Source of the DNA: a virus
IMG/VR virus record: IMGVR_UViG_3300025919_000136
Coordinates: 1-64,000 of that record
DNA length: 64,000 nt
Strand: one strand, 5' to 3'
Both the position numbers and the translations under genes were made by a program. Numbering within the stretch: position 1 is the stretch's first letter; every line of letters begins with the position of its first letter. A model generated the notes under the pieces. That model saw only the letters and a program-made list of their open reading frames with translations. It was not told where the DNA came from and searched no databases. Below, one piece after another: positions 20,515-63,503 of this stretch.

Positions 20515-20541
20515 GGGCGGTTTTCTGGGCAGAGTCTCCGC
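20515..20541 (-). repeat. 28-bp element copy (intergenic)
   Basis: gggcggttttctgggcagagtctccgc. Confidence 0.75.
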
Positions 20542-21164
20542 TACAGACTAATGGAATGCCCTGCCCGCTTCATGATTTCCTTAACGAGATCTATCGTCTG
20601 GTCAACTAATGGACGGATGAAGTCGTATCGAGGGTTCATGAATATGGCGGTGTAGTCGCGCATAGTTTGGTAGTTCTCTACCACAGTGGAGTTAGCGTTC
20701 GTGACCTCCGCGTAGAGGTAGCTTACTACGGATAGGTAGTCGGCGAAGGCCACGATGGCCCCTTCATTAGTGGAGTCCTTCGCGTTGGCCCACATTACCG
20801 CCATGCGCGTGGCGTAGGTTGGTTCGTCGAACAGACTGAGAACGAGAGCCTCGATCTCTTGCTCGGCGGCTGCATCCAGCATGTCTTTGAGTTGCGGATT
20901 GGAGTATTTGAACGGGCGTTGAAAATCGCCTGTGCGGGCTTCGTCCATGTCATGGATTAACGCACGGCGGAGCACTTGGAGTTCATTGATGTCGCGGCGC
21001 TCCGTCTCCTTGCGAATCCAGTCGCAAATGAACATAGAGTAGATGGCGACGTACGCCGTATGCTCCGCTACTCCCTCTCGGTGCAATACCAAGCTGGTCG
21101 AATGTCTGGTAACGTATCTTAGCCTGTTAACATCTCCGGTTAACATAACTCTAATGTTTAGCAC
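20541..21164 (-). CDS. HD-domain deoxynucleotidase (YfbR/DatZ-like)
   Basis: VTRH, EGVAEH, ALIHDMDEARTGD, FADYL. Confidence 0.85.
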   Translation of the reverse strand: MLNIRVMLTGDVNRLRYVTRHSTSLVLHREGVAEHTAYVAIYSMFICDWIRKETERRDINELQVLRRALIHDMDEARTGDFQRPFKYSNPQLKDMLDAAAEQEIEALVLSLFDEPTYATRMAVMWANAKDSTNEGAIVAFADYLSVVSYLYAEVTNANSTVVENYQTMRDYTAIFMNPRYDFIRPLVDQTIDLVKEIMKRAGHSISL

Positions 21165-21684
21165 TGTTTTCCTCTCTTTTTCTGGCCCATCTTAGCTTGG
21201 CTGCCTCGCTAATCTTCTTTTTCGCTTCTTCTGAAACGGGCCTGCTCGTCATACTCATAGATGTGAGTAGTCTGGTATATTCAGATGCTGGTGGCCTTGC
21301 CCTTCGCTTCTCTCCAATCTTCTTTTTGGTCTCCTCAGAATGGTTGAATCCTGGAGGACGTCCCCCTAGTTTGTTTCCGTTGCGCAAAGCATCCAGTTGA
21401 TTCTCACGTCTACTACCCCAGTATAGGTTCTCCAACCTATCATCGTCTGGGATATCATTTTTATGGCATGCGCAGTATCCTGGAGGTCTAGGCCCAACAA
21501 ACGTTTCCAAAACGCCAGCAGCGACTCGTATAGCGGTGCGGGACGAGAATCCAAACCCTCTATAGTTGCCGCTAGGGTAGATGTGGACAGGCTCCTTAGT
21601 ATCCCAAGATCTGACATTCCCTTGATCGGAGATCTCAAAGTATGGGATTTCTGGATACTCTTCCCACCTTTCCTCGTCTGCCAT
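21151..21684 (-). CDS. HNH homing endonuclease (NUMOD4-HNH-NUMOD3)
   Basis: FEISDQGNVRS, FVGPRP, CHKNDIPDDDRLENLYW, HSEETKKKIG. Confidence 0.85.
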   Translation of the reverse strand: MADEERWEEYPEIPYFEISDQGNVRSWDTKEPVHIYPSGNYRGFGFSSRTAIRVAAGVLETFVGPRPPGYCACHKNDIPDDDRLENLYWGSRRENQLDALRNGNKLGGRPPGFNHSEETKKKIGEKRRARPPASEYTRLLTSMSMTSRPVSEEAKKKISEAAKLRWARKREENSAKH

Positions 21685-21686
21685 AT

Positions 21687-22394
21687 CTACGCCCCCACTT
21701 CGGCCCCACGCGGAGCACTTTCTCCAGAAGATGGGCCAACTTCCTGCTGGGCAGCCCAGGCCTCGCAAGCTGACCAATTGAAGTATTGAGCCTTCACTGG
21801 CAGATTGGCGAGCGCACCGCTAATGCCGTATACGCTGGTGAGGCGGCTACGCTCGTAGATAGAGTTGGGGATGTAGCCGCTGAGCGAAGCATCCAGGAAC
21901 TTCTCCAACGCGAAGTACCCAGACAGGAGTCCGTCTGTCCCGTGCGTCAACATAACGTTGAGGTGCTCGGCCTTCTTTGTGGGGTGGAAGCCGACGACCA
22001 GCTTACCCAAGCCACGCGCCAAGCCCATCTCCCAGGTGGCGCCGAGGTCAGGAAGTTCTAGCTCTCGTACGGGGATCGTGATATCTACACGGAGTCCGGT
22101 AGTGGCGGATTCCTTCGGTTCCAACTTGCAAGCGCAAATGCGCTCGTTGGGCGGCAAGGCGTAGGCCAACACTGCCAGGAGCAGATCGCATTCCTGGATG
22201 GAGTCTTCGTTCCAGTTGAAAAGTGGAAGCCAAGCGGCGGGATTGGATTTCTGATCGGGAGCAGGGAGGAACGGTTCGCTACCGAGTCGTGGAGAGAGGA
22301 ATTTGTGGCCGGAAGCGGTGATTATGTCTTCGATCGTGGTGATGATGCCACGTTGGGGCTCGTTGAAGAGCGGTGCGGCTATGTAGATTTTCAT
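21687..22394 (-). CDS. Nucleoside 2-deoxyribosyltransferase / dNMP N-glycosidase family
   Basis: IYIAAPLF, DLGATWEMGLARGLGK, NVML. Confidence 0.85.
   Translation of the reverse strand: MKIYIAAPLFNEPQRGIITTIEDIITASGHKFLSPRLGSEPFLPAPDQKSNPAAWLPLFNWNEDSIQECDLLLAVLAYALPPNERICACKLEPKESATTGLRVDITIPVRELELPDLGATWEMGLARGLGKLVVGFHPTKKAEHLNVMLTHGTDGLLSGYFALEKFLDASLSGYIPNSIYERSRLTSVYGISGALANLPVKAQYFNWSACEAWAAQQEVGPSSGESAPRGAEVGA
21709..21737 (+). repeat. 28-bp element copy (in NDT 3' end)
   Basis: cgcggagcactttctccagaagatgggcc, read as GPSSGESAPR. Confidence 0.9.
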
Positions 22395-22415
22395 TGTACT
22401 CCTTGAACGGCTTAC

Positions 22416-22448
22416 CCAGTAGGAAGCGCCTACGGCGCTTCCTACTGG
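22416..22448. terminator. Perfect 15-bp hairpin
   Basis: ccagtaggaagcgcc tac ggcgcttcctactgg; no U-tract on the coding strand. Confidence 0.6.
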
Positions 22449-22475
22449 TTTAGTTGTGTAACGAACAAACGACTA

Positions 22476-23237: not shown

Positions 23238-23317
23238 TTTGTCGGTTCCTTAACCTTTGTAGGTTACCTTTGCGTAGATTTGTTGGCATTGTGGTGCCTG
23301 TCATGTGGCAGAAAGTA

Positions 23318-23345
23318 GGCCCATCTTCTGGGAGAGGTACTCCGC
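23318..23345 (-). repeat. 28-bp element copy (intergenic)
   Basis: ggcccatcttctgggagaggtactccgc. Confidence 0.9.
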
Positions 23346-23381
23346 AGTCCATAGGTAGTTGGGTGCGCTGTGCGCACCCAA

Positions 23382-31646: not shown

Positions 31647-31653
31647 TTGATTT

Positions 31654-31682
31654 GGCCTTCCTCTGGGAGAGATGTCTCCGCG
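31654..31682 (-). repeat. 28-bp element copy (intergenic)
   Basis: ggccttcctctgggagagatgtctccgcg. Confidence 0.9.
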
Positions 31683-31703
31683 AATAGTAAATACGAACAG
31701 TGG

Positions 31704-34684: not shown

Positions 34685-35167
34685 CTATGTATTGGTGGTG
34701 GGGTCGGGCGGCTCCGCGATGGGGCCGTACCAGAGACCTACCAAGTTAGTGATTGGACGTCCGACTTGATCGTGAAGGACGTTGGGATCTTGACACATTA
34801 TCCTTACTCCCCAGCCCAAGTTCAGTAGTATAGGGTTCCGACACTCGTTCATAAATACATATAATCCTGATTCGCAAGGGGAGTACTTAGACCAGTAAGG
34901 ACCGCTCTGTTTTGGCCCATCTTCTGGGAGAGATGCTCCGCCTGATTCATTCGCGTGGGGTTGGGCGTTGGCGTCAATGAAGTCCGCGATTTGACGGAGG
35001 AACTTTGCCCGTTCGTGACCGAAATAATGAGGTCTACCTTCAGGTGACTCATCGTCGTATATGGTAGTAAAGATCAATGTATTTATCACTTGTTCGGTGT
35101 CGAGCTCGACGTATTCGTACGGTGGGTCTTGGTCGGGGCGCGGAATACAAAGTTTGGTTCGGTGCAT
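34685..35167 (-). CDS. Hypothetical protein
   Basis: Two modules joined at a 28-bp element copy. Confidence 0.5.
   Translation of the reverse strand: MHRTKLCIPRPDQDPPYEYVELDTEQVINTLIFTTIYDDESPEGRPHYFGHERAKFLRQIADFIDANAQPHANESGGASLPEDGPKQSGPYWSKYSPCESGLYVFMNECRNPILLNLGWGVRIMCQDPNVLHDQVGRPITNLVGLWYGPIAEPPDPTTNT
34914..34941 (-). repeat. 28-bp element copy (intragenic)
   Basis: ggcccatcttctgggagagatgctccgc, read as GASLPEDGP. Confidence 0.9.
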
Positions 35168-35172
35168 GGTGG

Positions 35173-35199
35173 GCGGAGACTCCTTCCAGAAGATAGGCC
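35173..35199 (+). repeat. 28-bp element copy (intergenic)
   Basis: gcggagactccttccagaagataggcc. Confidence 0.85.
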
Positions 35200-35200
35200 T

Positions 35201-35434
35201 TCAATTATAGGTGGGTCTGTCGTCGTTGTTATCGCTGTTGGTATCGCCCCCAGAACAGTCCAAAACCCACGCCAGGGCCACCGCTGGCCAGAACAGAACC
35301 CAGCCCACGAAGCAGCATCCAGCCGCTGTGGCAGCCAAGATACGGCTGGGGGCGGAGTGTTGGTGGACGAACATCCGGATACTGAACAGGATGGAAACGA
35401 CGATGCCCGCGACGAGGTAGAGGAATAGGAGCAT
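35201..35434 (-). CDS. Small two-TM membrane protein
   Basis: Two hydrophobic stretches, LFWP motif. Confidence 0.5.
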   Translation of the reverse strand: MLLFLYLVAGIVVSILFSIRMFVHQHSAPSRILAATAAGCCFVGWVLFWPAVALAWVLDCSGGDTNSDNNDDRPTYN

Positions 35435-37295: not shown

Positions 37296-37377
37296 TGGAG
37301 TGGTCTGGGTAGGTTAAGCGTTCAGGATATCCCAACCGAACGGATCATACAAGTCGTGGTAGTCAGATCCGCCGTCA

Positions 37378-37404
37378 GCGGAGTCCTCTCCAGAGAAGTG
37401 GGCC
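37378..37404 (+). repeat. 28-bp element copy
   Basis: gcggagtcctctccagagaagtgggcc. Confidence 0.8.
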
Positions 37405-37465
37405 AAAACTGCGAACACGAGGCCTGCTAAGAGTAGGGAAGCGAAGGCAAGGATGAGTTTTGGTT

Positions 37466-38433: not shown

Positions 38434-38816
38434 GACTCAATCAGCGACTGGAGCACCTTCATATCGCCTTCGAGGAAAGTATAGCCGTTAGCGATCTTGT
38501 TCAGAAGGTAGATGGCGGAGATCTTCCAATTGCGGTTGTTGTCTTCGACTGCAAGTTTCCAGTCGTACTTGAATATGTATCGTTCGGCTTCCAGCGAAGC
38601 CAAGGATTTCTCCCGTTCGCATTCGTCTTCGATACCCAGGATCTGGTGGACGATGTTGCTCGTGATTTGGGCCGCTTCTCTGGGAGAGATCTCCGCTGTG
38701 GCAGACTGCTTTACGTGCCTGTCGGTGGTTTTCTTCTGTCCGCCGTATATGGTGGCGAACGTGCTGATCTGCGCTTGCTTGCGACGGCGCTGCATTTCTT
38801 GGGCGGTGATTGGCAT
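38430..38816 (-). CDS. Hypothetical protein
   Basis: AAGGAG ribosome-binding site. Confidence 0.55.
   Translation of the reverse strand: MPITAQEMQRRRKQAQISTFATIYGGQKKTTDRHVKQSATAEISPREAAQITSNIVHQILGIEDECEREKSLASLEAERYIFKYDWKLAVEDNNRNWKISAIYLLNKIANGYTFLEGDMKVLQSLIES
38669..38696 (-). repeat. 28-bp element copy (intragenic)
   Basis: gggccgcttctctgggagagatctccgc, read as AEISPREAA. Confidence 0.85.
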
Positions 38817-40339: not shown

Positions 40340-40533
40340 GTAGGTAGGTTTCGTACCCAGAAATCTTTGATGGCCGATTCTTGGTTCTCGTAAGTATATA
40401 GCGGAGTGGTATTGAACGGATACGAGGTTTGGTATAGCCTGGTGGTATAATAGTTGATCACGCGGAGAACGGCGCGGAGTTGTTTCCGGTGACGTTGGCT
40501 GCGGCGGTATAGGTGATGTGGGTTGCGGAGTTT

Positions 40534-40561
40534 GGGCGCTCTTCTGGGAGAGATGCTCCGC
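40534..40561 (-). repeat. 28-bp element copy
   Basis: gggcgctcttctgggagagatgctccgc. Confidence 0.85.
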
Positions 40562-40625
40562 TGTCCATAGATAGCATTCGATTGCCGCGTTGACGTGGGG
40601 TGGCCGTATGTGGTGGAGGGGTACT

Positions 40626-42093: not shown

Positions 42094-42512
42094 TGTAGTT
42101 TTGGGCCGTCCTCTGGGAGAGATGTCTCCGCGTCAATATTCGGTGTGGGCGTGGTCTTGGGCGGAGCTAACGCTGCTACGTTTTCTAATGCTTGACGAGC
42201 GATGGATTTCAGATAGTTTGGGTCGTTGGCGTTGTAGATGGCCATAACTCCGTTCAGGCGGTGGGTTGGTGGCAGCTTGCGTATGATGGCGGCAATAGGA
42301 TCTACGATATCTTGTAGTGCTTGCGTAGCTAATTCAAGTTGGCGGTTAGCGGTGGTGGCGTTCCATTTGGTTGTAGCTAGTTCGGGTGTGGGTGCGGAGG
42401 GGCCGGTTGCGTCGCAGGTGTAGCAACCGGTCTGGACGTTGCCGTTGGATAAGGAGGCGTAGGATGGGTCTGTGTCGGTAGAGCCGCAGAAGGGGCAGGG
42501 GTTGGGTTTCAT
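42090..42512 (-). CDS. Lar-like (restriction alleviation) Zn-finger protein
   Basis: PCPFCGS...CYTCDATGP...KWN. Confidence 0.7.
   Translation of the reverse strand: MKPNPCPFCGSTDTDPSYASLSNGNVQTGCYTCDATGPSAPTPELATTKWNATTANRQLELATQALQDIVDPIAAIIRKLPPTHRLNGVMAIYNANDPNYLKSIARQALENVAALAPPKTTPTPNIDAETSLPEDGPKLQ
42103..42132 (-). repeat. 28-bp element copy (gene 3' end)
   Basis: gggccgtcctctgggagagatgtctccgcg, read as AETSLPEDGP. Confidence 0.9.
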
Positions 42513-45009: not shown

Positions 45010-45037
45010 ATACCACCATGAGTATAGATTTGATTTT

Positions 45038-45065
45038 GGCCGTTCTCTGGGAGCGATACTCCGCG
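45038..45065 (-). repeat. 28-bp element copy, left flank of the non-coding centre
   Basis: ggccgttctctgggagcgatactccgcg. Confidence 0.85.
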
Positions 45066-45322
45066 TCGGGCGGGCCGTTTGGGGCCGGTAAGGCGGGTGG
45101 TCGTTCGCTACCCCACGATTCTTTTGATTGGTAAGGCGCAAAGCTGGGCTGGCCTAAACGCTTTTACGGAATTCGAGCAAATCGAGCAATAACTTTAAAA
45201 CGGCGTTTCGACCCCACGTACAGCCTTCGTTTCTGGGCGAATTTCGTAGATTTCCATCGGTGGCTTCGTGGGTCTACAACGCCGTTTAAATGCTTATTAC
45301 CCGATTTAGCCATAAATCGACT

Positions 45323-45711
45323 AAATCGGTCAACCCGTCTAAAAACGGCTGGGGGCGCGAAGACGGATGGCGCTCATGAAAACGCGTTATTTGTCGTATT
45401 TTCCGGTTTTGGTCGTATTTTGTGTTTTCGTATTTTTAGGCTTTGAAAATCTTGTTTTTTCGTAATTATTTACTAAACTTGACCATATCTTCAGATATGA
45501 TATTTATAAAATATAATATGACAAAAAGCAGACAGCGCATGACGAACGATACCACCAATTAAGGAGTCGACGCTGGACTCCCTGTTGCCGCTAACTTAAG
45601 ACGGATCAAGCAGAAGCCGGGCTGGCTCTTTTGGCTCAAACGATTTTGTAGAAAACAGACGCGCCATCCGTCTTCACCCCCCCAGCCGTTTTTAAGCGGT
45701 TTTACCGATTT
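45323..45711. other. Candidate origin (or terminus / packaging site): 51-bp inverted repeat around an AT-rich core
   Basis: Arms 45323-45373 and 45661-45711 match 45/51; TCGTATTTT x3; AT-rich 45440-45530. Confidence 0.6.
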
Positions 45712-45795
45712 GGCCCAAAACCGATATTCCGTAAATCCGCCAAAACCGCCCACTTCGCGCCCCCGCCCAACCCACCATCATTCGCTAACTATCAA

Positions 45796-45824
45796 CGCGG
45801 AGGATCTCTCCCAGAAGATGGGCC
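45796..45824 (+). repeat. 28-bp element copy, right flank of the non-coding centre
   Basis: cgcggaggatctctcccagaagatgggcc. Confidence 0.95.
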
Positions 45825-45860
45825 AAAAGAAAACCCCAGCAGCGCATAGCTGCTGGGGTT
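45825..45860 (-). terminator. Rho-independent terminator
   Basis: 12-bp stem aaccccagcagc/gctgctggggtt followed by a U-tract on -. Confidence 0.85.
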
Positions 45861-47190: not shown

Positions 47191-47199
47191 GGCGCGACA

Positions 47200-47228
47200 C
47201 GCGGAGCATTCTGCCCAGAGGATGGGCC
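47200..47228 (+). repeat. 28-bp element copy
   Basis: cgcggagcattctgcccagaggatgggcc, abuts a stop codon. Confidence 0.9.
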
Positions 47229-47740
47229 TATTCGACGCGGACCCACCGCTCCACGGTGCCATCAGTGTTGTAGATCACGAAATCGTTGGTCTTGTCGTTG
47301 TAGGTGATCAGGTCGATGTGGTTGGTGAGGCCTCCGGTGGAGATCCACCATTCGTCTCCTACGGGCTGGTTAGCCTCGACCCATTGCTGGCAGCGACCAC
47401 CGAAATCGGCGTAGCCGTTGACGTGATACAGGTGGTGGCCTGCCACCTTCATCGCGTAGACGGGGATGGGCTGTTGGCAATCGGTGACGATGGATTCGAT
47501 GTCTTCAGGTAGCATCTCGTTGGCGAGCAATTCGCGGAGCAGCGGCCAATTGCTGGCTTCGATGGCTTGGTTCAGCGAGACCACGAGCTCGTTAGCGGAG
47601 CGGAAATGGGGTGCGGGATCTTCGTTGCGATGCTTGACGGCGCGTAGGTTGCCACGCAATTTGGTGCCGTCTTCCAATGTGTAGAGAGCGTTGTTCTTGC
47701 CGATAGAACATTCTACGGCGAAGCGTCGGGTGATCTTCAT
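47228..47740 (-). CDS. Early hypothetical protein
   Basis: 170 aa, AAAGGT site. Confidence 0.6.
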   Translation of the reverse strand: MKITRRFAVECSIGKNNALYTLEDGTKLRGNLRAVKHRNEDPAPHFRSANELVVSLNQAIEASNWPLLRELLANEMLPEDIESIVTDCQQPIPVYAMKVAGHHLYHVNGYADFGGRCQQWVEANQPVGDEWWISTGGLTNHIDLITYNDKTNDFVIYNTDGTVERWVRVE

Positions 47741-48528: not shown

Positions 48529-48553
48529 TGGGGCTGTTCGCTGGGTATGGTTA

Positions 48554-48582
48554 GCGGAGGTATCTCTCCCAGAAGATGGGCC
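48554..48582 (+). repeat. 28-bp element copy
   Basis: gcggaggtatctctcccagaagatgggcc. Confidence 0.95.
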
Positions 48583-48662
48583 TAAAGCTGGATGCCTTCC
48601 CAGCCGCCATTGTAGCGGGTTGCGCCGATTTCCTTGGGGATGTTCACGAGAATTGGTTCCAT
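48582..48662 (-). CDS. 26-aa peptide with its own promoter
   Basis: MEPILVNIPKEIGATRYNGGWEGIQL, AGGAG site. Confidence 0.45.
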   Translation of the reverse strand: MEPILVNIPKEIGATRYNGGWEGIQL

Positions 48663-51216: not shown

Positions 51217-51241
51217 TGGATCCTCTCCAGAAGACGGGGCC
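51217..51241 (+). repeat. Degenerate 28-bp element copy
   Basis: tggatcctctccagaagacggggcc. Confidence 0.7.
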
Positions 51242-51247
51242 TGAAAA

Positions 51248-52439: not shown

Positions 52440-52544
52440 GGATTTCTTTCGCCCGCCTACGAAGCAGGTACTCATCGATGTTCGGTAGGAGGTCCGCGCC
52501 AAGCAGCCCGACCAAGTCTAGGCGCAATCTGCCGTCGGCGGATA

Positions 52545-52571
52545 GCGGAGGTATCTCCTCCAGAGAATGGG
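52545..52571 (+). repeat. 28-bp element copy
   Basis: gcggaggtatctcctccagagaatggg. Confidence 0.75.
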
Positions 52572-55509: not shown

Positions 55510-55549
55510 GTTTAAATGGCTCTATACGGTCGATCGTAATGGAGGTAAC

Positions 55550-55702: not shown

Positions 55703-55743
55703 GTCGTTGGTTCCTTTTGGGATCGGGGAGCTGGGCAACGGCC

Positions 55744-56034: not shown

Positions 56035-56087
56035 GATTTTCCATGGCGCTCCGGGGAGGGGCCACTCACGCACCCCCCTATAGCACG

Positions 56088-57110
56088 CTAGCTAGCGGCC
56101 TCCGCGAAGAACTGATCCAACGCCCGCCCACTCAGCGAACAACCCATTAGCAACTCCGGAGCAATGTGGCCTTCGTACCGCATGGGATGGCGGCGGGATT
56201 TCTTGGTGGGTTTGGGTGTGGGAGCACATTGAATGGCAGGCTTTGCGGCACGCCCACGCGGAGCATCCGTCCCAGAAGAGGGGCCATCTACGTTCAGCTT
56301 CGCCACAACCTGATGGCGAATCTCTACACGATCCGGCGCACGCTCGTAGACTGGATAGGAATTCAATACATTCTGGACTTCCTGCTGGATCTCGGCTTCG
56401 GTTGGGGCCAACGGCAACGGATCGCTTAGATCGATCGCCGGGACTTCCACGGCCACCGCCCCACCATGCTGCGGGTGGGGCAAGCCGTAGTGCTCGGCGC
56501 AGACCGGGCCGTAGCCAACTTCCACGGAACCTTCCTCTTCCAGCGTCCGACTGCAGAAGCAACAGGCCCCTAGCAGCTTGCCATACTCGGCGGCAACTTG
56601 TACCGGGTTGGCGGCGAACCGCAGCACTACTTCGCGAATGGCAGGAGTCATGGACTTGCCCTCCACCAGACGGCCATCAGGGTCGATGCGCCCGAACCAG
56701 GTACGGTCTTCGTATGAACCGGACGAGACAACCGAGAGGGATTGTGGGTGCTTGCTAGCCGAAGTATTCGGCAAGATGCGGAAGTCTACAACCTCCCCGG
56801 ACGGGGTGGTGGCTTGCAGCCGAACCTTGGGTCGCTTGAGTGCTTTGGCAGCCACCGCAAATAACTCGTAGATTTTGGCGACTTCGCCAACGGAAATGGG
56901 GGTGGACTTGGCGGCATCCATGGCCAGCTTGTGTACCCACCACCATTGTTCGCTGCTCAGTTGGCCCTTAGAGGTGAAGTCCGCGACCAACTTCGCGGCG
57001 AAGGAGTCGGGTTTACCTTCGGCCAACCCTACCAACGCTTCCATAGCTTCCCGGTACGTAAACGGCGATTCCAACGTTCCCCGCTTGCCTGCTACACGAT
57101 TCCGAATCAT
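56088..57110 (-). CDS. DUF6011-containing protein
   Basis: CCFCSRTLEEEGSVEVGYGPVCA; AAGGAGG site. Confidence 0.7.
   Translation of the reverse strand: MIRNRVAGKRGTLESPFTYREAMEALVGLAEGKPDSFAAKLVADFTSKGQLSSEQWWWVHKLAMDAAKSTPISVGEVAKIYELFAVAAKALKRPKVRLQATTPSGEVVDFRILPNTSASKHPQSLSVVSSGSYEDRTWFGRIDPDGRLVEGKSMTPAIREVVLRFAANPVQVAAEYGKLLGACCFCSRTLEEEGSVEVGYGPVCAEHYGLPHPQHGGAVAVEVPAIDLSDPLPLAPTEAEIQQEVQNVLNSYPVYERAPDRVEIRHQVVAKLNVDGPSSGTDAPRGRAAKPAIQCAPTPKPTKKSRRHPMRYEGHIAPELLMGCSLSGRALDQFFAEAAS
56257..56285 (+). repeat. 28-bp element copy (intragenic)
   Basis: cgcggagcatccgtcccagaagaggggcc, read as GPSSGTDAPR. Confidence 0.9.
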
Positions 57111-57140
57111 ATCACGACCTCCTTGACTGACTTACCATTA

Positions 57141-57200
57141 AGTATAACTCATCAGAGAAGGTTTGGGGGCCTTTTTATCGAAAATAATTTAATTATTTTC
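57141..57200 (-). promoter_or_regulatory. Repeated promoter copy 9
   Basis: GAAAATAATTAAATTATTTTC - CCCCCAAAC - GTTATACT. Confidence 0.8.
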
Positions 57201-57222
57201 CAAGAGATTTGGGAGCGTGGCC

Positions 57223-57768
57223 CTACTGGTCCGCCTGACGAAGGCGACCTTGGCGCTTCTGAGCAGGGTTGCTCCATGCGGAATGGGCCGTATGCTTCGG
57301 ACCGAAAACACCCACTTCGGTGGCTGTCCCAACTTCAGGAAAGTCGCTGCGGTCCAAGTCGTGGGAAGCAAGCGGCTTGCGCAAGCATCCACAGGACTTC
57401 GCCACGCCTTGGATCATTTTTCCAACTGCAACCCTGGCGGTATTACCACAGTCACATTGACAGAGCCACATGGTGCTCTGGTTACCTGACTTTGAGATTC
57501 GCTTGCCGTCGTAGCGCACCGCCGTCAGCAGACCACTCCGAAGGCCGGTGATATCTTTGCGTTGGCATTGGGGTAGAGTGCTCTTGTAGCAACCGCTCAT
57601 GCCGCAGGACTTCACCCGACCAAGGCGCAAGTTTTGGGAGACTTGGGTCGTAATACGACCGCAATCACAGCGACAAATCCAATGGGCTCCGCCACGATTA
57701 TTCGAAGTCTGCTCGATGGCAACCAGTCTTCCAAATCGCTGCCCGGCAAGGTTAATGGCTTTTGGCAT
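57223..57768 (-). CDS. Homing-endonuclease-type Zn-binding repeats without a nuclease domain
   Basis: Two G.R.G.L...W.C.CDCG...KSCG repeats; no HNH follows. Confidence 0.65.
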   Translation of the reverse strand: MPKAINLAGQRFGRLVAIEQTSNNRGGAHWICRCDCGRITTQVSQNLRLGRVKSCGMSGCYKSTLPQCQRKDITGLRSGLLTAVRYDGKRISKSGNQSTMWLCQCDCGNTARVAVGKMIQGVAKSCGCLRKPLASHDLDRSDFPEVGTATEVGVFGPKHTAHSAWSNPAQKRQGRLRQADQ

Positions 57769-57802
57769 ATTCGTTCCTTTTGGTTTTAACGACTTACCTT
57801 AT

Positions 57803-57862
57803 ATTATGACTGATTGGGATGGGTTTGGGGGACTTTCAGAAAATATTCTCAACTATTTTTCC
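57803..57862 (-). promoter_or_regulatory. Repeated promoter copy 10
   Basis: AT tracts - CCCCCAAAC - ATCAGTCATAAT. Confidence 0.85.
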
Positions 57863-57866
57863 AACG

Positions 57867-57896
57867 AAAAGGGGCAGGGGCCGAAGCCCCCGCCCC
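57867..57896 (-). terminator. Rho-independent terminator
   Basis: GC stem with cUUCGg loop, then TTTT. Confidence 0.8.
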
Positions 57897-57912
57897 CAAA
57901 GCACCACGCCAA

Positions 57913-58116
57913 CTAAACATTGCGGGCAACGGCTTCGCCCATTTCTTCGTGAAACCACTCGGCCATCGCCGGGATTTCGAGCAACCGGGCAACCTCTTCG
58001 AGGATCACGATTTGATTTTCCTCACCTTCGCACAGATTCGGCTTCGCGCGCAAGGTTTGCGCCTTTTCGCGGCAGGCCAGGATGACCAATTCGGTGGTTC
58101 GGGTTTCGACGATCAT
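57913..58116 (-). CDS. Early hypothetical protein
   Basis: Single gene between promoter copy 11 and a terminator. Confidence 0.55.
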   Translation of the reverse strand: MIVETRTTELVILACREKAQTLRAKPNLCEGEENQIVILEEVARLLEIPAMAEWFHEEMGEAVARNV

Positions 58117-58161
58117 GGATTTCTCCCAGAAAACCGGCGCTACATTCTGCCGGCACCAAAC

Positions 58162-58222
58162 AGTATAACCGATCGGGACGGGTTTGAGTGGGTTTTGGAG
58201 AAGTATTTTGGAAAATATTTTC
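58162..58222 (-). promoter_or_regulatory. Repeated promoter copy 11
   Basis: TATTTTCCAAAATAC - CTCAAAC - CCGATCGGTTATACT. Confidence 0.85.
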
Positions 58223-58230
58223 GGAGCAAT

Positions 58231-58260
58231 GAGGGGAGCGCCTGAAAGCGCTCCCCACTC
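58231..58260 (-). terminator. Hairpin / probable terminator
   Basis: ggggagcgc / gcgctcccc. Confidence 0.55.
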
Positions 58261-58264
58261 CCCA

Positions 58265-58522
58265 CTAGAACGTTTGCTCAATCCCTGTAGGCTGCCAGTA
58301 GGATTCGTCCTTGCCTCCGCCACCGTTGGCAGAGTCGTCATGCTCCGGACGGATTACCAAACCGAGAACTTCGGGATTGTTCGGCTGGGCTACCACCATC
58401 AACCCTGTTACCGAATTCTCCTCGGGCGTCCACCACTGGCAAGGAACGCCCACGAGAACGGGCGTGTCCTCAGGAATCGGGAGTTCCTGCAGGGCCTTTA
58501 CGAATTGCTTCAACGTAATCAT
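58265..58522 (-). CDS. Early hypothetical protein
   Basis: MITLKQFVKALQELP, AAAGGAG site. Confidence 0.6.
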   Translation of the reverse strand: MITLKQFVKALQELPIPEDTPVLVGVPCQWWTPEENSVTGLMVVAQPNNPEVLGLVIRPEHDDSANGGGGKDESYWQPTGIEQTF

Positions 58523-58562
58523 TCTGTCTCCTTTGAACGGCTTGAATTGAACAACAAGCATC

Positions 58563-58635
58563 AGTATAACCGATCGCGCAGCGTTTGGGACATAAGCCCT
58601 TACGTCGAATTTGGGAATTTTCCAAAGTATTTTTC
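58563..58635 (-). promoter_or_regulatory. Repeated promoter copy 12
   Basis: CCCAAAC - CGATCGGTTATACT. Confidence 0.8.
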
Positions 58636-58680
58636 TTGACCTATATTCTGGAGCGAGCACCCCCCAAACTGCTCGCTATT

Positions 58681-58708
58681 CGCGGAGCATCCTGCCCAGA
58701 GGATGGCC
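58681..58708 (+). repeat. 28-bp element copy
   Basis: cgcggagcatcctgcccagaggatggcc. Confidence 0.9.
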
Positions 58709-58815
58709 CAACCATTTAAAGCGGTCTAGCAGCCGGTTTAAAGCGACTTTATAGCAGTAGGCCTTAGTGGTCCGGGGGCGCGAAAATCGTTTTTACGGCT
58801 CTATACGTCAAAAGG

Positions 58816-59049
58816 TTACTCCGTGTAGTCATCCACGATCGCTTGGATTTCGAAGGTTTGGAGTGGCGCAGCCAAGGTTAGCGAACAGATGCTCAAGTGG
58901 AAGGTAAGCGAGTCGTGGTCCTGGTGTTCGCGGGAGAGGCATTCCAGTTGAGTCTCGGCATTGTTATCGTGGTTATACTTTCCCACCAACACCTGCTCGC
59001 CAGAGCCATTGAACGAATAGTAGATCAAGTTGCCTTCGCGAATGAACAT
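58816..59049 (-). CDS. Early hypothetical protein
   Basis: TAATG-coupled. Confidence 0.5.
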   Translation of the reverse strand: MFIREGNLIYYSFNGSGEQVLVGKYNHDNNAETQLECLSREHQDHDSLTFHLSICSLTLAAPLQTFEIQAIVDDYTE

Positions 59050-59255
59050 TAGTCCTCTTCGTCCCCTTCCCGCTTCACGGTGCGATCGATCGAAATCACG
59101 ACCGTGGCTCCAGCGGCATCCTCAACCCTCAACCAATTGCGGCCAATGGTTCGCACGATGCCGCGTTGCGGGGTGGTGTTGCCATGTCCGTTTTCGTACT
59201 GCACGATGTCGTACTCGTTGAAGTCGGCGGCTGTGGGTATAGCGGTGGATTTCAT
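59049..59255 (-). CDS. Small SH3-like early protein
   Basis: FNEYDIVQY...RGIVRTIG; AAAGGA site. Confidence 0.5.
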   Translation of the reverse strand: MKSTAIPTAADFNEYDIVQYENGHGNTTPQRGIVRTIGRNWLRVEDAAGATVVISIDRTVKREGDEED

Positions 59256-59264
59256 ATTTGTCCT

Positions 59265-59450
59265 TTAGCGGAACCGAATGACGTCTGCAATGTGCAGCGC
59301 ACGTTCGGTGTCGGTCATGTGCGGGTGGCGGAAGGCGTAGGTCATCTCGGCTACGAAGAAGAATGCTGCTAGAGTCCAAAGTAGGTAAATGGCAGCCTTC
59401 CACAGCTTGATCTCGGTTTGGATGTCTATCCTTGGCTTTTTCATGGTCAT
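59265..59450 (-). CDS. Small membrane protein
   Basis: TM + FRHPHMTDTER. Confidence 0.5.
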   Translation of the reverse strand: MTMKKPRIDIQTEIKLWKAAIYLLWTLAAFFFVAEMTYAFRHPHMTDTERALHIADVIRFR

Positions 59451-59845
59451 CCTGAAGAATCTACTCGGTTCGACACGCCGCACTTCGAGCAGGTATTCGT
59501 GTGGTCGAACATAGCATGGGTGACCGTCGTCCAGATGTGCTCGCAGCCAATGTAGAAGTAGCGCGTATGCTCGTTCTGGTTGCGTGGACGCATGCGGCCT
59601 ACCGCCCACTGGTCGAACCAGACGATGTCGAGCGCACGGAAGGACAAGCCTTGGTCCCCCTCAAAGTTCATCAGTTGGCGGTGCTCTTCGAAGCGGGACT
59701 GCGGATAGATTCGGCCGTAGTACTCGTGCTCCGAGATCTCGACCATTGGTTGCGGTGGTCGGTTGTGGTTGCCAAACTCTTGCAGCCAAGGCCGATCGAC
59801 GAATTCGATTTCGGGCGTCTGGCACCAGACCAAGCGGTAGCTCAT
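59447..59845 (-). CDS. Hypothetical protein with C-terminal Zn motif
   Basis: GCEHIW...CSKCG...VDSSG. Confidence 0.6.
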   Translation of the reverse strand: MSYRLVWCQTPEIEFVDRPWLQEFGNHNRPPQPMVEISEHEYYGRIYPQSRFEEHRQLMNFEGDQGLSFRALDIVWFDQWAVGRMRPRNQNEHTRYFYIGCEHIWTTVTHAMFDHTNTCSKCGVSNRVDSSG

Positions 59846-60063
59846 TTAATCTCCTGCAGCCCGGACAGCTTCCCCTCTGGAGAAATGGTTAGCTTCCTAT
59901 ACTCGCCATACTTCAGCCCCATCCAACCGCCACCAGCGCGCGACTCCAGGCGAACGTAGCGCTCGTTCAGCTTCAGCCGCTTGTTAGCCTTATATAAGTG
60001 GTTGTTCTGGCCGACGGTCCAACCTTTGGACTTGGCCCAGTCTACCAGTGCTTGCTTGGTCAT
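59842..60063 (-). CDS. Early protein (paralogue of 51670-51900)
   Basis: Alignable by eye over its full length. Confidence 0.6.
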   Translation of the reverse strand: MTKQALVDWAKSKGWTVGQNNHLYKANKRLKLNERYVRLESRAGGGWMGLKYGEYRKLTISPEGKLSGLQEIK

Positions 60064-60293
60064 TCACGCCCCCATACGGCTTCGTCGATTTCTTCCTTAT
60101 CCTCGACCGGTTGCGGCGTGTTGGTGCTCTCTTCCTCCGCAAAGTAGGTCACGAAGATGTATGGCTCCCCGTCCATTTCGACCAACACTACAACATCACC
60201 TTCGTCGTTGGAAAGTACTTGGGCGGTGGAACCGTCGGTGGTGGGCGTGAAGCCCAAAGTGGAGAGATGAAATGCTGCTTCGGAGACTTTCAT
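60060..60293 (-). CDS. Acidic early protein (paralogue of 54519-54761)
   Basis: TAAGGA site. Confidence 0.55.
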   Translation of the reverse strand: MKVSEAAFHLSTLGFTPTTDGSTAQVLSNDEGDVVVLVEMDGEPYIFVTYFAEEESTNTPQPVEDKEEIDEAVWGRE

Positions 60294-60315
60294 TGGATTC
60301 CTTAAGATAGAGGTA

Positions 60316-60592
60316 GCAAGGCTGGTTGAGCTACTGACGATCATCGCACTACGCTGCAGCGCGTAGGCTCCCGAGGTTCGCTCTCAGTCGGGTTATCAGC
60401 AAGTCGAACACTGCATGTATACGACAGCGGCAGCAAACTTGCTCTCGCCGGACCATGCCGACTCTCCACGGAACCAGCCTTGCCCCATGCAAGCAAACCA
60501 GGAGGCAGGACTCAACTACCTAGCGGGATAGCTGGGGTACAATCGCGAAGTCTTACGACCGTGCCATACGTCCCGAATTGTTCCTGGTTGCT
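60316..60592 (-). ncRNA. Candidate two-domain structured non-coding RNA
   Basis: Closing helices AGCAACCAGGA/TCCTGGTTTGCT and GCAAGGCTGGTT/AACCAGCCTTGC with nested stems; no credible ORF. Confidence 0.6.
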
Positions 60593-60593
60593 C

Positions 60594-60670
60594 TGGGAAC
60601 TCCGATCGGGCTCGAACCGATACTGTAGCCGAATTACTCGGGTGCCTCTGCCAGTTGGGCTACGAAGTTC
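60594..60670 (-). tRNA. tRNA-like gene with aberrant anticodon arm
   Basis: Acceptor AACTTCG/CGGAGTT, D arm TAGCCCAACTGGCAGAGGC, T arm ATCGG TTCGAGC CCGAT, encoded CCA; anticodon loop only GTAAT. Confidence 0.75.
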
Positions 60671-60698
60671 TTAGGAGCCACAGCAGGCTCCACCGTAT

Positions 60699-60768
60699 AT
60701 TATGCCCCAAGCGAACAGCTTTGGGGGCCGTTTTCTCTTGTATACGAAAATAACTGGGTAGTTATTTT
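60699..60768 (-). promoter_or_regulatory. Repeated promoter copy 13 (drives tRNA-like / ncRNA unit)
   Basis: AAAATAACT..AGTTATTTT palindrome - CCCCCAAAG - GGCATAAT. Confidence 0.75.
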
Positions 60769-60871: not shown

Positions 60872-61249
60872 ATGGAATACAGCAACGACACTATCACATA
60901 CTGGGAATGTCCAGTATGCTTGCGGCAAATAGACTCTTGGGAATTCGATGTTCACCTCTTCCGTCACTTAGCGGAGGACACCCCAACTACTAACGGCAAC
61001 GGACATTGTGGGCACGACCACGGAACCTTAGTAGCTGCAGCTATAGATTTGCTAGGGGCGGGCGCTACGAATGGCTTCGGCGTGGTGGAAGTTGGTGATC
61101 CCGGACTGGAAGAGTTCCTGACGAAGCAAGAGGCGGAACTGATGGAGTTCGACGTCTGGTTGAGTTGCGAACAGTTACGACGCTACCGCATCTACTGGGA
61201 GCGACACTACAGGAAATACCGAGCCGAGGAAGATGGAGGGGATGATTAG
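60872..61249 (+). CDS. Protein with C2H2-like Zn finger
   Basis: CPVC...HLFRH. Confidence 0.55.
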   Translation: MEYSNDTITYWECPVCLRQIDSWEFDVHLFRHLAEDTPTTNGNGHCGHDHGTLVAAAIDLLGAGATNGFGVVEVGDPGLEEFLTKQEAELMEFDVWLSCEQLRRYRIYWERHYRKYRAEEDGGDD

Positions 61250-61674
61250 TGGCCATAATAGACCCTGGATGGAACCGAGCCAACTTCAGCTCCGACCCAT
61301 TCCGTCTCATGTTCGACAATTACTTCCTTCGAACCGGGACGCGCCACCCAGCAGACCCCAAGTACAAGGAATGGCAGGAAGCACAAAGCGTACCACCTGG
61401 CAACCCTTCGGCTGGACGTGGAGCATCTCCTCCAGAAGATGGGCCAAAATCCAAAGTTCCATACGTATCGCTAGAGGTTCGCAGGGCTGCAGATTTTCTG
61501 GCAGCGAACTCGACGGTGCGCTCTGACTACATAACCACATCGCCAGAGCGAATGAAAGCGGCTTTCCGCGAAGCGACTCAGAAGTTACGCCCCGACCTTG
61601 GCCGCAACCACGAAGCTTCGGTTCAGTTGAACGCAGCCTACGCCACGCTGAAGCGATTCCATGGTGTTCGGTGA
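61249..61674 (+). CDS. Protein with C-terminal J-domain-like module (RPD in place of HPD)
   Basis: MKAAFREATQKLRPDLG...VQLNAAYATLK. Confidence 0.6.
   Translation: MAIIDPGWNRANFSSDPFRLMFDNYFLRTGTRHPADPKYKEWQEAQSVPPGNPSAGRGASPPEDGPKSKVPYVSLEVRRAADFLAANSTVRSDYITTSPERMKAAFREATQKLRPDLGRNHEASVQLNAAYATLKRFHGVR
61417..61445 (+). repeat. 28-bp element copy (intragenic)
   Basis: cgtggagcatctcctccagaagatgggcc, read as RGASPPEDGP. Confidence 0.9.
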
Positions 61675-62004: not shown

Positions 62005-62008
62005 GATT

Positions 62009-62722
62009 ATGAAGGGCAACCAACTCGAAGGTGACGGAACTTGGTCGTGGTTAAAAGTCGAGGTTGATGGCGCTGACCTGGTGCTGCGTAGTGCTACTTC
62101 CACTTGGTTCGGTGGCGCTCACGATCCTGAGGACTCCGGTGCTACGGCTAGCGGCGTCTCCACGAAGTTGCACCCTGACATATTGGGATGCGCACTCCCC
62201 ATGGCCGGATTCGGTCATGCTACGCAAGGTTCCCCGATTCCCCGCTTGCCGTGGCACACCCTCGTGAAGGTCTTCTGCTACGAGACGCACAAGGAAGTGG
62301 AGGTCGAACTCATCGATCTCGGCCCTTCCAAGTACACCCACCATGGGCTGGACTTGACTGTAGCCGCCTTCGCGGAGTTGGGCATTTCGCTGGACCAGGG
62401 AACTTGTCGCTGCGATGCCCGCATTGTGGATGGGGCGCGGCACATTAAAGGCTTCCACGCGGCGCTAAGCGGCGTAGTGGAAGGGGCCGAACTAGCCAAC
62501 GGCGAACCGCAGCCGGACTATAATCCACAGCGAGTCTTGCCGCTGGAGGAGTCCGAGGAAGAGCCCACTAACGAAGCGGACCCGAACCACGGGATTCCCG
62601 CCTCCGTGCTACGCGGAGCGTCTCGACCCAACTTAGTTGAGAGTGGCACTCCAGCCACCGCGAACGACCAAGCGGACACAGACGGAGTGGCGGAACCAGC
62701 TACTTCCACCACCACCGACTAA
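62009..62722 (+). CDS. RlpA/DPBB-like lytic enzyme with acidic tail
   Basis: STWFGG, CALP, VELIDLGP, LDLTVAAF. Confidence 0.6.
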   Translation: MKGNQLEGDGTWSWLKVEVDGADLVLRSATSTWFGGAHDPEDSGATASGVSTKLHPDILGCALPMAGFGHATQGSPIPRLPWHTLVKVFCYETHKEVEVELIDLGPSKYTHHGLDLTVAAFAELGISLDQGTCRCDARIVDGARHIKGFHAALSGVVEGAELANGEPQPDYNPQRVLPLEESEEEPTNEADPNHGIPASVLRGASRPNLVESGTPATANDQADTDGVAEPATSTTTD

Positions 62723-62725
62723 CCC

Positions 62726-63283
62726 ATGCTCGATACCCTCACCCAGAAAATACGCGAGTTCTTCGCACCGCAGCCCGTTGCGGCCAACCATGGCATGTCG
62801 CGCCCTCCGGGAATGCAAGTTCACGAGTGGGAAGCGTACCTGGCAGCTTGCGCGGAAGCAGGCGTATCGCCAGATAGAATCATCCAGGTAGTAGGGGATG
62901 CACCCGCTTCCCAAGGCTTCCACCTACCGGACGGCAGATTCACTAACTCCAACGGCCAACTTGAAGACTATACTGCGGCGCTGGACCTTTCCGTCAAGCA
63001 CCCTAACGGACACTTGACGGTCGAACAGATTAAGCGACTCCTTGACTGTCTAGCGAAGCGTGGGTTCATTGGTTGGTATCGGCCCTGGGGCGATAACGAG
63101 CACATTCACGTCGTCTACTGCGGATTGCCGATGAAGGAAAAGCTGCGCAACCAAGTACATGACTGGTTCAAGCACTTGGACGGTTTAGTGGACCACTCCT
63201 ATGATGGATTCGTGTTGCCGACCGCAGCCGAGATGAACTTCTGTCGGGCATTGTTCTTGGCCCACAACCCGGCGAACGGGTAG
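62726..63283 (+). CDS. M15-like zinc peptidase endolysin
   Basis: SQGFH...ALDLS...EHIHV (H-D-HxH). Confidence 0.6.
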   Translation: MLDTLTQKIREFFAPQPVAANHGMSRPPGMQVHEWEAYLAACAEAGVSPDRIIQVVGDAPASQGFHLPDGRFTNSNGQLEDYTAALDLSVKHPNGHLTVEQIKRLLDCLAKRGFIGWYRPWGDNEHIHVVYCGLPMKEKLRNQVHDWFKHLDGLVDHSYDGFVLPTAAEMNFCRALFLAHNPANG

Positions 63284-63292
63284 AGGTATATT

Positions 63293-63466
63293 ATGGTTGC
63301 TGCTATCGTCGAGATCATCTTCATCGGTCTGATTGTATGGGCGGTGAACGCCTTCCTACCCATCCCAGCCACCTTCAAGAACATCGTTATGTTCCTCGGA
63401 GTGTTGGCCGTCATCATGGTACTGTGGGGCTTATTCGGCGGACACCCAATCGTATCGGTTCGATAG
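63293..63466 (+). CDS. 57-aa two-TM membrane protein (not in ORF track)
   Basis: MVAAIVEIIFIGLIVWAVNAFLPIPATFKNI..., GAGGT site. Confidence 0.6.
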   Translation: MVAAIVEIIFIGLIVWAVNAFLPIPATFKNIVMFLGVLAVIMVLWGLFGGHPIVSVR

Positions 63467-63475
63467 GAATGGTCA

Positions 63476-63503
63476 GCGGAGGACCTGTCCCAGAAGATGG
63501 GCC
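63476..63503 (+). repeat. 28-bp element copy (intergenic)
   Basis: gcggaggacctgtcccagaagatgggcc. Confidence 0.9.

Follow-up and report, generated by a model that had tools for sequence, protein, structure and literature searches.

Motifs dispersed along phage genomes are usually classed as promoters or operators, and the locus described here raises the question of whether either class can accommodate a 28-bp element whose copies seem to point one way on one side of a non-coding centre and the other way beyond it. The window, i.e. the whole stretch of 64,000 nucleotides that was analyzed, corresponds to positions 1-64,000 of the virus record IMGVR_UViG_3300025919_000136 in IMG/VR, and the whole record (hereafter G000), from a soil phage, is 88,424 bp long. 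A first-pass annotation of the window had noted the change of orientation at about 45.4 kb and had suggested polar signals for replication forks, a translocase, packaging or ejection. The element is real, polar and conserved, it is under selection as nucleic acid inside genes, its spacing is regular along the right arm of the map, and its core recurs family-wide. We lean, tentatively, toward reading it as a cis-acting, strand-specific DNA signal for the phage's own replication/recombination machinery.

The element can be written as GCGGAG-N7-9-CCAGAAGATGGGCC, and the nhmmer profile used to count it allows the same 7-9-nt spacer. With the spacer fixed (GCGGAG-N8-CCAGAAGATGGGCC) and at most three mismatches, the window holds 14 matches, compared with 0.01 expected, a count that none of 100 shuffles attained. 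In the complete record, the profile finds 36 copies of at least 15 bits (21 on the + strand and 15 on the - strand), recurring about every 2-3 kb. The consensus was derived from an alignment of 74 copies from G000 and a related genome, G001. In these copies GCGGAG is nearly invariant and is followed by the pyrimidine-rich spacer, an invariant CCAGA, two purines and an invariant A; after this CCAGARRA core come a T (in 47 of the 74 copies), GG, S and CC, and an A/T-rich tail at the end. Intergenic positions account for 21 of the 36 copies, compared with a non-coding share of 11.4% in the record (p = 1.6e-11). Single copies have no T run, and an intrinsic terminator was rejected on that ground; a mobile repeat of the REP/BIME or MITE-like kind was set aside because positions are conserved and the single copy is not a palindrome, and by eye the blocks fit neither the sigma54 -24/-12 nor the sigma70 -35/-10 spacing.

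According to our own crude codon-usage gene caller, which agrees with the gene strands given in the first-pass annotation, the genome falls into three blocks. Late genes lie on the + strand from 60872 to the record end and from 1 to 11737 (terminase at 72833, portal at 76522, major capsid protein at 85230), middle genes on the - strand from 44932 down to 12012, and small early genes, also on the - strand, from 60293 down to 45879, the latter two blocks being separated by a 946-bp non-coding gap (44933-45878). With the arrow of the element defined as running from GCGGAG to GGCC, all ten copies right of 45.4 kb in the window are +, just as had been reported. Seven of them score at least 28 bits (45793, 47198, 48550, 56256, 58678, 61414 and 63472) and three are weaker (52541, 14.5 bits; 51219, 12.4; 58117, 11.6); an additional weak copy at 54287 (9.2 bits) is also +. 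Eight of the 11 copies between 20.5 and 45.1 kb are - (20510, 23313, 31651, 34910, 38665, 40530, 42099 and 45034), and the + exceptions are the three that had been named earlier: 21708..21742 (32.9 bits), antisense in the 3' end of the - gene 21687-22394 and on the same strand in G001; 35170..35204 (25.6 bits), antisense between two - genes and conserved in G001; and the weak 37375..37407 (9.8 bits). Over the whole record, copies of at least 15 bits divide into 15+/2- right of the centre and 6+/13- left of it (Fisher p = 8e-4), with arrows pointing outward in 15 of 17 and 13 of 19 cases, respectively. The bias also survives the addition of weak sites, all 90 cores being split 29/16 on the right and 17/28 on the left (p = 0.02). 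The 53 bare CCAGARRA sites that lie outside full elements have no arm bias (12+/14- right, 12+/15- left); polarity is therefore a property of the full 28-bp element. Moreover, the right-arm + copies are regularly spaced (coefficient of variation, CV, 0.40, p = 0.00025).

The earlier claim that polarity follows genome position and not transcription holds only for the early block (45.8-60.3 kb), where every copy is antisense (five of five at 15 bits or more, nine of nine at 8 bits or more); elsewhere, the strand expected from position is also the one expected from gene direction. With the + copy at 11762 assigned to the + gene block, 23 of the 36 copies run in the same direction as the genes around them. 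Position accounts for 28 of the 36, and an equal number obey a mixed rule under which copies are sense among middle and late genes and antisense among early ones. Position and the mixed rule part only at 0-12 kb, and there the two strands are balanced (687-, 1016-, 1084+, plus the doublets at 8.6 and 11.8 kb). Sense copies make up nine of 13 in the middle block, ten of 12 in the late block (60.9-88.4 kb) and none of five in the early block, and are mixed at 0-12 kb. The solid core fact is that an entire - strand gene block bears + copies only. The stoperators of Cluster A mycobacteriophages are about 30 dispersed, asymmetric, mostly intergenic sites that follow transcription everywhere, in temperate phages with an immunity repressor. 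The element shares their dispersed, asymmetric and mostly intergenic character and differs in that its early-block copies oppose transcription, in that only 23 of 36 are co-oriented overall, and in that no integrase was found in G000 or G001, so that the contrast with stoperators drawn in the first-pass annotation was fair.

Much of this arrangement is kept in G001. A megablast of 40-50 kb against the phage collection found no close relative, and the best polymerase matches there were 23-26% identical. An exact 17-mer scan of viral contigs gave more than one match in G001 only, with single matches in L011-L013, and among the matches listed from a metagenome pattern scan (120 loci) more than one copy occurred only at L170, whose contig is probably that of G001, and at L205. 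A 95.7-kb contig (C8) from the Abditibacteriaceae metagenome-assembled genome (MAG) G002 was rejected as a relative: it shares only the portal, the capsid and one other head protein with G000 and has no element. G001 (85,035 bp) is about 80% identical to G000 at the nucleotide level (69-91% over collinear blocks), and the two genomes are not independent of each other. It carries 41 copies of at least 12 bits (18+/2- on the right arm, 9+/12- on the left), and all eight in the early block are +. A same-strand copy is present in G001 within 60 nt of the expected place for 29 of the 39 G000 copies of at least 12 bits, and two early-block copies of G001 with no G000 counterpart (73227 and 74813) are again +. 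Conserved copies in the middle block include 23313..23349 (-, 34.6 bits, intergenic and sense) and 40530..40565 (-, 29.9 bits, sense), and in the late block 63472..63508 (+, 31.5 bits, sense), 37 nt upstream of gene 63541. At 38665..38697 (-, 19.9 bits, sense in gene 38430-38816) G001 has no alignable region, and 11 of the 39 copies (e.g. 20510, 45034, 48550) lie at the edges of G000/G001 alignable blocks, coinciding with mosaic joints; the first of these, 20510..20544 (-, 16.6 bits), is intergenic and sense. The inference of a polar signal is partly borne out, in that the polarity is real, kept in G001 and, within the early block, unrelated to gene direction; packaging and ejection are poor candidates, since both proceed one way along the DNA and the arrows flip.

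Copies that lie inside genes are retained as well. The 90 cores in G000 compare with 46.6 +/- 3.6 in synonymous-codon shuffles, and in-gene cores exceeded such shuffles in five of five genomes tested. Neither protein sequence nor codon usage accounts for the number of in-gene copies, and it is therefore the nucleic acid, not the protein, that is under selection. Sense in-gene copies use the codons CCA GAA GAT GGG CC to encode (S/L)PEDGP in ten of 15 matches, one of them in the portal protein, and antisense copies encode GPSSG in five of 11, so that in-gene copies can be read as retained in the form of flexible linker peptides. Examples of the sense type are 34910..34943 (-, 35.7 bits), which reads ASLPEDGPK in the called gene 34685-35167, and 61414..61450 (+, 32.0 bits, conserved in G001), which reads ASPPEDGPK inside the + gene 61249-61674. 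Antisense examples are 56256..56290 (+, 30.4 bits, conserved in G001), reading GPSSGTDAP inside the early gene 56088-57110, and 687..715 (-, 21.2 bits), a GPSSG-type linker inside the + gene 1-1008 with a 7.6-bit trace in G001.

A shorter form of the element extends to distant relatives, which are IMG/VR contigs retrieved via an alignment of polymerase homologues and whose motifs were judged homologous from shared core and architecture only. In the complete 68-kb genome G003, where one strand carries 96 of the 98 called genes, the motif is TCTTCTA-CCAGAGAA-aACGGnAAACC; CCAGAGAA occurs 30 times exactly, compared with 1.6 expected and none for the reversed control, and the copies of at least 15 bits are mostly mid-gene (13-/10+). 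G004 (67 kb) carries yTTCCAGAG(AT), with about 100 copies on both strands and 61 occurrences of TTCCAGAG vs none for the reversed control, and its best in-gene copies are sense by 12 to 3. By eye, many TTCCAGAG copies in this genome lie inside short inverted repeats with varying arms (TTACC...GGTAA, GTTATCTCT...AGAGATAAC), at a mean fold energy no different from random. The complete, 58-kb G033, whose genes are mostly +, carries GCCT-N-TCTCTC-CCAGAAAAAA, and YYCCAGARRA occurs there as 26+/6- vs 0/0. G006 (45 kb) carries TCCAGAAAA as 11+/2-, with all six copies in its - gene block on the + strand and 5+/2- in its + block. CCAGARRA is enriched where the polymerase is about 28% identical or more and fades below that, and by eye the shared core may be written as TCT-NCC-AGA. 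Mean fold energies upstream of the core are -4.5 in G000 and -4.7 in G001, compared with -2.6 and -3.0 in shuffles, and those near the core in G003 and G004 are indistinguishable from random genomic windows; GCGGAG is invariant and offers no covariation. On these grounds, a hairpin or RNA-structure reading of single copies was rejected as a family feature. CCAGAAGATGG was counted 0-15 times in each of 26 Abditibacteriaceae genomes (2.4-8.0 Mb in size; 0-2 for the reversed control), and a host-derived motif (uptake sequence, Chi, KOPS) was rejected for these 26 genomes, the host itself being inferred from capsid relatives.

Conserved positions and a strand that, in the early block, ignores transcription recall the nick motifs of T5, the phiKMV-like phages and tf, in the excerpts of PMC3517423 used here the closest documented case, and the element could be the site of a phage nicking enzyme, with packaged DNA then bearing single-strand interruptions on the + strand right of the centre and on the - strand left of it. 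The nick motifs of the T5, phiKMV and tf/LUZ24-like groups are likewise dispersed, group-specific, independent of gene direction and conserved in position; the 14 nick sites of tf share a single strand despite convergent genes, and putative sites occupy similar positions in four related phages, with a motif that co-evolves with the phage group (PMC3517423, same excerpts). The conservation of 29 of 39 positions in G001, the early block of G000 and the 11 of 13 copies on one strand in G006 agree with a nicking site. However, the nick motifs described there are 9-19 nt long and keep one strand genome-wide, and those excerpts report neither a mid-genome flip nor two-strand doublets, whereas here the copies are more numerous (36) and favour one strand per arm (15+/2- right, 6+/13- left), with a flip at the centre and two-strand doublets, 11+/2- in G006 and 13-/10+ in G003, and G003 and G004 have the core on both strands. 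No nickase was found in protein-family searches, and nicking would leave both the regular spacing and the closeness of some copies to start codons unexplained, which makes it an unlikely reading. In the open-access literature we found no report of a polar phage motif flipping in mid-genome.

The centre itself, hereafter the hub, is a non-coding region (45323..45711) built from a 51-nt inverted repeat (45323-45373 / 45661-45711, 88% complementary) around an AT-rich core. It holds a leftward sigma70-like promoter (TTGTCA-16-TATCAT, 45524 to 45497) that is conserved in G001 together with a block of some 130 bp on its right; the arms of the inverted repeat differ in sequence in G001 and lie at the same place, such that pairing is conserved and sequence is not. 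A functional-looking site near 45.5 kb is therefore present, and sequence conservation suggests that it is indeed functional, with a role as replication origin as a candidate. The copies that bracket it, 45034..45066 (-, 20.6 bits, conserved in G001), 104 nt upstream of the first middle gene (44932), and 45793..45827 (+, 36.2 bits, one base different in G001), which adjoins a strong early-block terminator (45861-45831, -), do point their GGCC ends outward as the first-pass annotation stated; the near-symmetry that it also described is only rough, the distances from the inverted-repeat midpoint being 451 and 276 nt. Face-to-face sigma70-like promoters occupy 45497-45640, and the + strand one is followed by a terminator-like hairpin (45615-45627), which makes a hub small RNA of about 100 nt possible.

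Inverted doublets cluster opposite the hub on what is probably a circular map. No match to the tyrosine integrase family PF00589 was found in G000 or G001 (the control was positive in 14 of 14 genomes), an identical capsid protein is present on a 94,285-bp contig, and G001 joins the end of the G000 record to its start via about 6 kb of + strand genes. These observations favour a lytic lifestyle and a circular map of about 94 kb, and because of them the IMG/VR label 'provirus' is probably wrong. On that circle, inverted doublets with a shared GGCC end are confined to 8.6, 11.8, 17.7 and 83.8 kb, none of them more than about 18 kb from the position that faces the hub across the circle. The first (8646..8703; + 8646-8682, 22.7 bits, - 8668-8703, 23.2 bits) lies between two + genes and is conserved in G001, with a hairpin of -21.1 kcal/mol (z -1.6). 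The second (11762..11821, both strands, 18.1 and 28.0 bits) marks the junction of the convergent + and - gene blocks and folds to -31.0 / -35.3 kcal/mol on the two strands (z -4.6 / -4.9). The third (17740..17796, both strands, 19.4 and 19.1 bits; -25.7 kcal/mol, z -2.3) is just upstream of the DNA polymerase gene (start 17719) and conserved in G001, and the fourth lies in frame inside a 962-aa late gene. A divergent pair 40 nt apart mirrors the hub layout, with an antisense copy just past the stop of gene 1-1008 (1016..1050, -, 31.8 bits, same strand in G001) and a sense copy 28 nt upstream of gene 1142 (1084..1117, +, 24.8 bits, conserved in G001); the pair folds to -55.5 kcal/mol (z -7.85).

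Doublets that fold strongly bring transcription termination to mind, and the element might act as a polar roadblock, i.e. a stoperator-like operator at which a bound phage protein stops RNA polymerase arriving from the GGCC side only. Early units would then be switched off as the protein accumulates, middle and late transcription would read through, and the doublets would act as two-way terminators. Four early-block copies stand between a gene stop and the next early promoter, as a roadblock might: 47198..47232 (+, 29.9 bits), adjoining the stop of gene 47228-47740; 48550..48586 (+, 28.8 bits), just upstream of an early promoter at 48468 (-); 52541..52571 (+, 14.5 bits; 28.7 bits in G001), 3 nt past the stop of gene 52575-52808; and 58678..58712 (+, 30.2 bits), upstream of an early promoter at 58563 (-). 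All four are antisense to the early genes, as are the weak copies 51219..51242 (+, 12.4 bits; 29.9 bits at the matching G001 place) and 58117..58141 (+, 11.6 bits). Classical terminators are no commoner than in shuffles (13 found vs 14.1 expected over 1-20 kb, 16 vs 21.0 over 44-64 kb), and the sole terminator-like match of the convergent junction falls within the 11.8-kb doublet, the doublets being otherwise without a T run. Against this, the 83.8-kb doublet would block transcription of its own 962-aa gene, a place in which no terminator would be tolerated. In addition, no integrase (PF00589) was found and no repressor identified, and the distributions in G003 and G004 would go unexplained. 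We therefore regard a roadblock as very unlikely.

By tblastn, the genes that the distant relatives share with G000 are almost solely those of replication and recombination: the primase-helicase (with its Toprim primase domain, 12218-14341), PolA (15566-17719), a Sak4-like ATPase and a PD-(D/E)XK nuclease are each matched at 29-44% identity in G003, G004 and G006, and a SNF2 helicase and a UDG-like protein are shared as well; in G000 the middle block also holds nucleotide-metabolism genes. Late proteins matched in G003 are the large terminase (25%) and the product of 81649-82281 (22%). A further shared protein (33761-34252, -, 163 aa) has no family match, is matched by tblastn in G003, G004 and G006, and by eye appears RuvC-like from its motifs IDPG...G (N-terminal) and H..DA.G.GL (C-terminal). 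With a RuvC-like resolvase, a PD-(D/E)XK nuclease and a Sak4-like annealing protein at hand, the core might be a hotspot for phage recombination, either as a preference of junction cutting or as a Chi-like stop for nucleases entering from genome ends. A core enriched without polarity, on either strand and within genes, would suit junction cutting, and the mid-genome flip of the arrows would suit enzymes that enter from two fixed ends. Known resolvase preferences and Chi sites are 4-8 nt long, which counts against a hotspot, as does the closeness of copies to start codons, which it does not explain; we consider it highly improbable.

Our preferred reading, that the element serves the phage's own replication/recombination machinery, takes the arrow as the direction in which that machinery would travel, outward on both sides from the hub. 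In its most concrete form, the element would be a preferred priming or replisome-loading site on the lagging-strand template for the primase-helicase. Forks would leave an origin in the hub, the right arm would for this reason carry + copies and the left arm - copies, and the zone opposite the hub, where forks would meet, would bear the two-way doublets. We infer from sequence that replication would be the process that reads the element, which protein may read it, and that the hub would be an origin rather than a terminus or a genome end. The antisense copies of the early block, recurring in G001 (8/8) and in G006 (6/6), support a signal at the DNA level. The both-strand, mid-gene copies of G003 are hard to reconcile with a promoter or a terminator; together with the in-frame doublet, the regular spacing, the linkers and the copy at 45793 that faces a terminator, they fit a signal read on DNA and are poor for a promoter, terminator or RNA feature. 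Further support comes from the core being, as it appears, a property of a phage clade that shares replication and recombination genes, and from the motif not being one of the host genomes. The primase carries a CxxC...CxxxxC zinc ribbon, and a search of the PDB sequences with it gave no match; in T7 gp4, according to the excerpt of PMC5517523 used here, a zinc ribbon of this kind reads template sequence.

Replichore-polar sequences are familiar from bacteria, where KOPS/AIMS, Chi skew and Ter sites are polar with respect to replication, KOPS and Chi being 8 nt long and Ter confined to the vicinity of the terminus. The element resembles these host signals in that its orientation flips at one point and again roughly opposite on the circular map, partly independent of genes, and differs from them in being 28 bp long, phage-specific and not enriched in the likely host family. 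The ssi/G4-type and primosome assembly signals are hairpin-rich sites of 40-100 nt, present once or a few times per replicon. The likeness proposed here is a strand-specific signal on a single-stranded template that would be read by a primase or primosome; the 36 sites of G000 are, in contrast, short, with a weak hairpin tendency in G000 and G001 and none in G003 and G004. The fullest version of the preferred reading, in which two replichores carry a 28-bp polar signal every 2-3 kb that is read on one strand by the primase-helicase or another part of the replisome and kept in genes as linkers, while a shorter form (TCT-NCC-AGA, CCAGARRA) extends over a broad clade of uncultured phages that have this replication module in common, we regard as possible and no better than doubtful.

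A number of observations weigh against a replication/recombination signal. Known primases read 3-5 nt, not 28, the bare cores of G000 are not polar, and left-arm spacing is not significantly regular (CV 0.63, p = 0.08). GC skew does not flip at 45.4 kb, and the iteron-like 9-mers of the hub (TCGTATTTT repeats) are not conserved in G001. The sharing of a replication module is partly ascertainment, since the relatives were found through PolA, and tblastn could miss small regulators that have diverged too far. Beyond the early block, the arrows agree with transcription as well, and a promoter accounts for 28 of the 36 copies equally well. No further promoter-like motif is seen to recur in the late module. 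Start codons without a Shine-Dalgarno motif follow the ends of four sense copies (31651, 42099, 69255 and 86924) at a distance of 5-10 nt, although such a motif is seen in 83 of 121 called genes, and this looks like a transcription start; in the window these copies are 31651..31685 (-, 21.7 bits), 7 nt before the ATG of gene 31416-31646, and 42099..42135 (-, 23.8 bits), 10 nt before that of gene 41845-42093. One copy in G033 also ends just before a start codon with no Shine-Dalgarno motif, and in a divergent intergenic region of that genome one copy faces left and two face right.

The latter observations are those expected of a middle/late promoter, at which a putative phage factor would redirect host RNA polymerase. 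CAGAAGAT would then be a -10-like block, GGGCC a discriminator and GCGGAG an activator box at about -27, with transcription starting at the A-rich bases past GGCC. Sense copies would drive middle and late genes, whereas early-block copies would fire rightward, silence the early genes and read on into the late genes at 60.9 kb. The intergenic excess, the sense majorities of the middle and late blocks, starts of the short-leader type, and in G033 both the divergent region with copies facing both gene blocks and the 26+/6- split in a mostly + genome all favour a promoter, as do the sense in-gene copies of G004. The early genes have a promoter class of their own, CCCCAAAC-N14-15-TATAAT, which heads each early unit at 12 distinct intergenic sites, all on the - strand at 44.9-60.7 kb (44949-60727 in the window), and has no pattern match in the late module, where the element is the sole recurrent intergenic motif (in six of 18 regions of at least 35 nt). 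Several of these early-class promoters are followed by a palindrome of the type GTATTTTCGAAAATAC. Temporal antisense control is known in phages, the excerpt of PMC4933390 used here describing early antisense RNAs against structural genes in PAK_P3.

Against a promoter stand, first of all, the relatives: the strong copies of G003, mostly mid-gene, are split 13-/10+ even though all but two of its 98 called genes share a strand, and G004 has about 100 copies on both strands. In G000, the doublets would be face-to-face promoters, one of them inside a 962-aa gene, the copy at 45793(+) runs directly into a terminator hairpin, and promoters at 687(-), 1016(-), 21708(+), 35170(+) and 84235(-) would fire antisense within middle or late genes. 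Just 47 of the 74 aligned copies have the T that would fall at position -7. Protein-family searches of early, middle and late proteins, most of the early ones being without a family match, found no RNA polymerase, sigma factor, nickase or obvious site-specific DNA-binding protein; the sigma70-type domains PF04542 and PF08281 gave no match, and neither did the T7-like polymerase family PF00940 in a search that lacked a positive control. The T4 MotA-box and late promoters and the SPO1 gp28 promoters are bipartite motifs that lie upstream of, and co-oriented with, many middle or late genes with short leaders. Compared with these, the element has one gene block that is antisense-only, many mid-gene copies, face-to-face doublets, and related motifs on both strands in G003, and no polymerase or sigma factor of the kind was found in G000. 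A promoter is, in our estimation, the main rival, serious and still rather doubtful. The replication and promoter readings are not exclusive, because promoters active during replication would be selected to face as forks do.

New here is that the CCAGARRA core is over-represented in distant phages of the polymerase clade, in genes and in some of them on both strands, and that in-gene copies exceed codon-usage expectation, spacing is regular and inverted doublets lie opposite the hub. Transcription alone does not account for the direction of the motif, and diverse uncultured phages of one clade retain its core within genes. If the element marks the direction of forks, it would offer a sequence-only readout of origin, terminus and replication mode in metagenomic phages. 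It would also imply a primase or replisome with unusually long sequence specificity and, should the two-replichore version hold, the first family of sequences orienting replication to be described in a virus. If the element is instead a promoter, late-type promoters would cap early units in antisense as a systematic design, and the consensus would be a late promoter for a phage group with no cultured member. In either case, the motif is a ready experimental handle.

The nearest relatives of the capsid protein are found in Abditibacteriaceae and Abditibacterium MAGs (55, 43 and 41% identity), and the host may belong to the Abditibacteriota. Among minor features, the sole match in the window to Rfam 15 at the gathering score is a Twister-P5 ribozyme (RF02684, 51933-51987, -, 50.6 bits vs a gathering score of 37.6), located between two early genes, with no match on the elements. 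The 1052-aa gene 69292-72450 carries an intein with an HNH endonuclease (PF14890, PF13392), and contig ends of G001 flank this region. Between the terminase and the portal, a 545-aa protein (74346-75983) has an ADP-ribosyltransferase domain (PF03496, E = 1.5e-7) and may be a virion-carried modifier of host proteins, and the phage protein encoded at 64158-64796 has a response-regulator receiver domain (PF00072).

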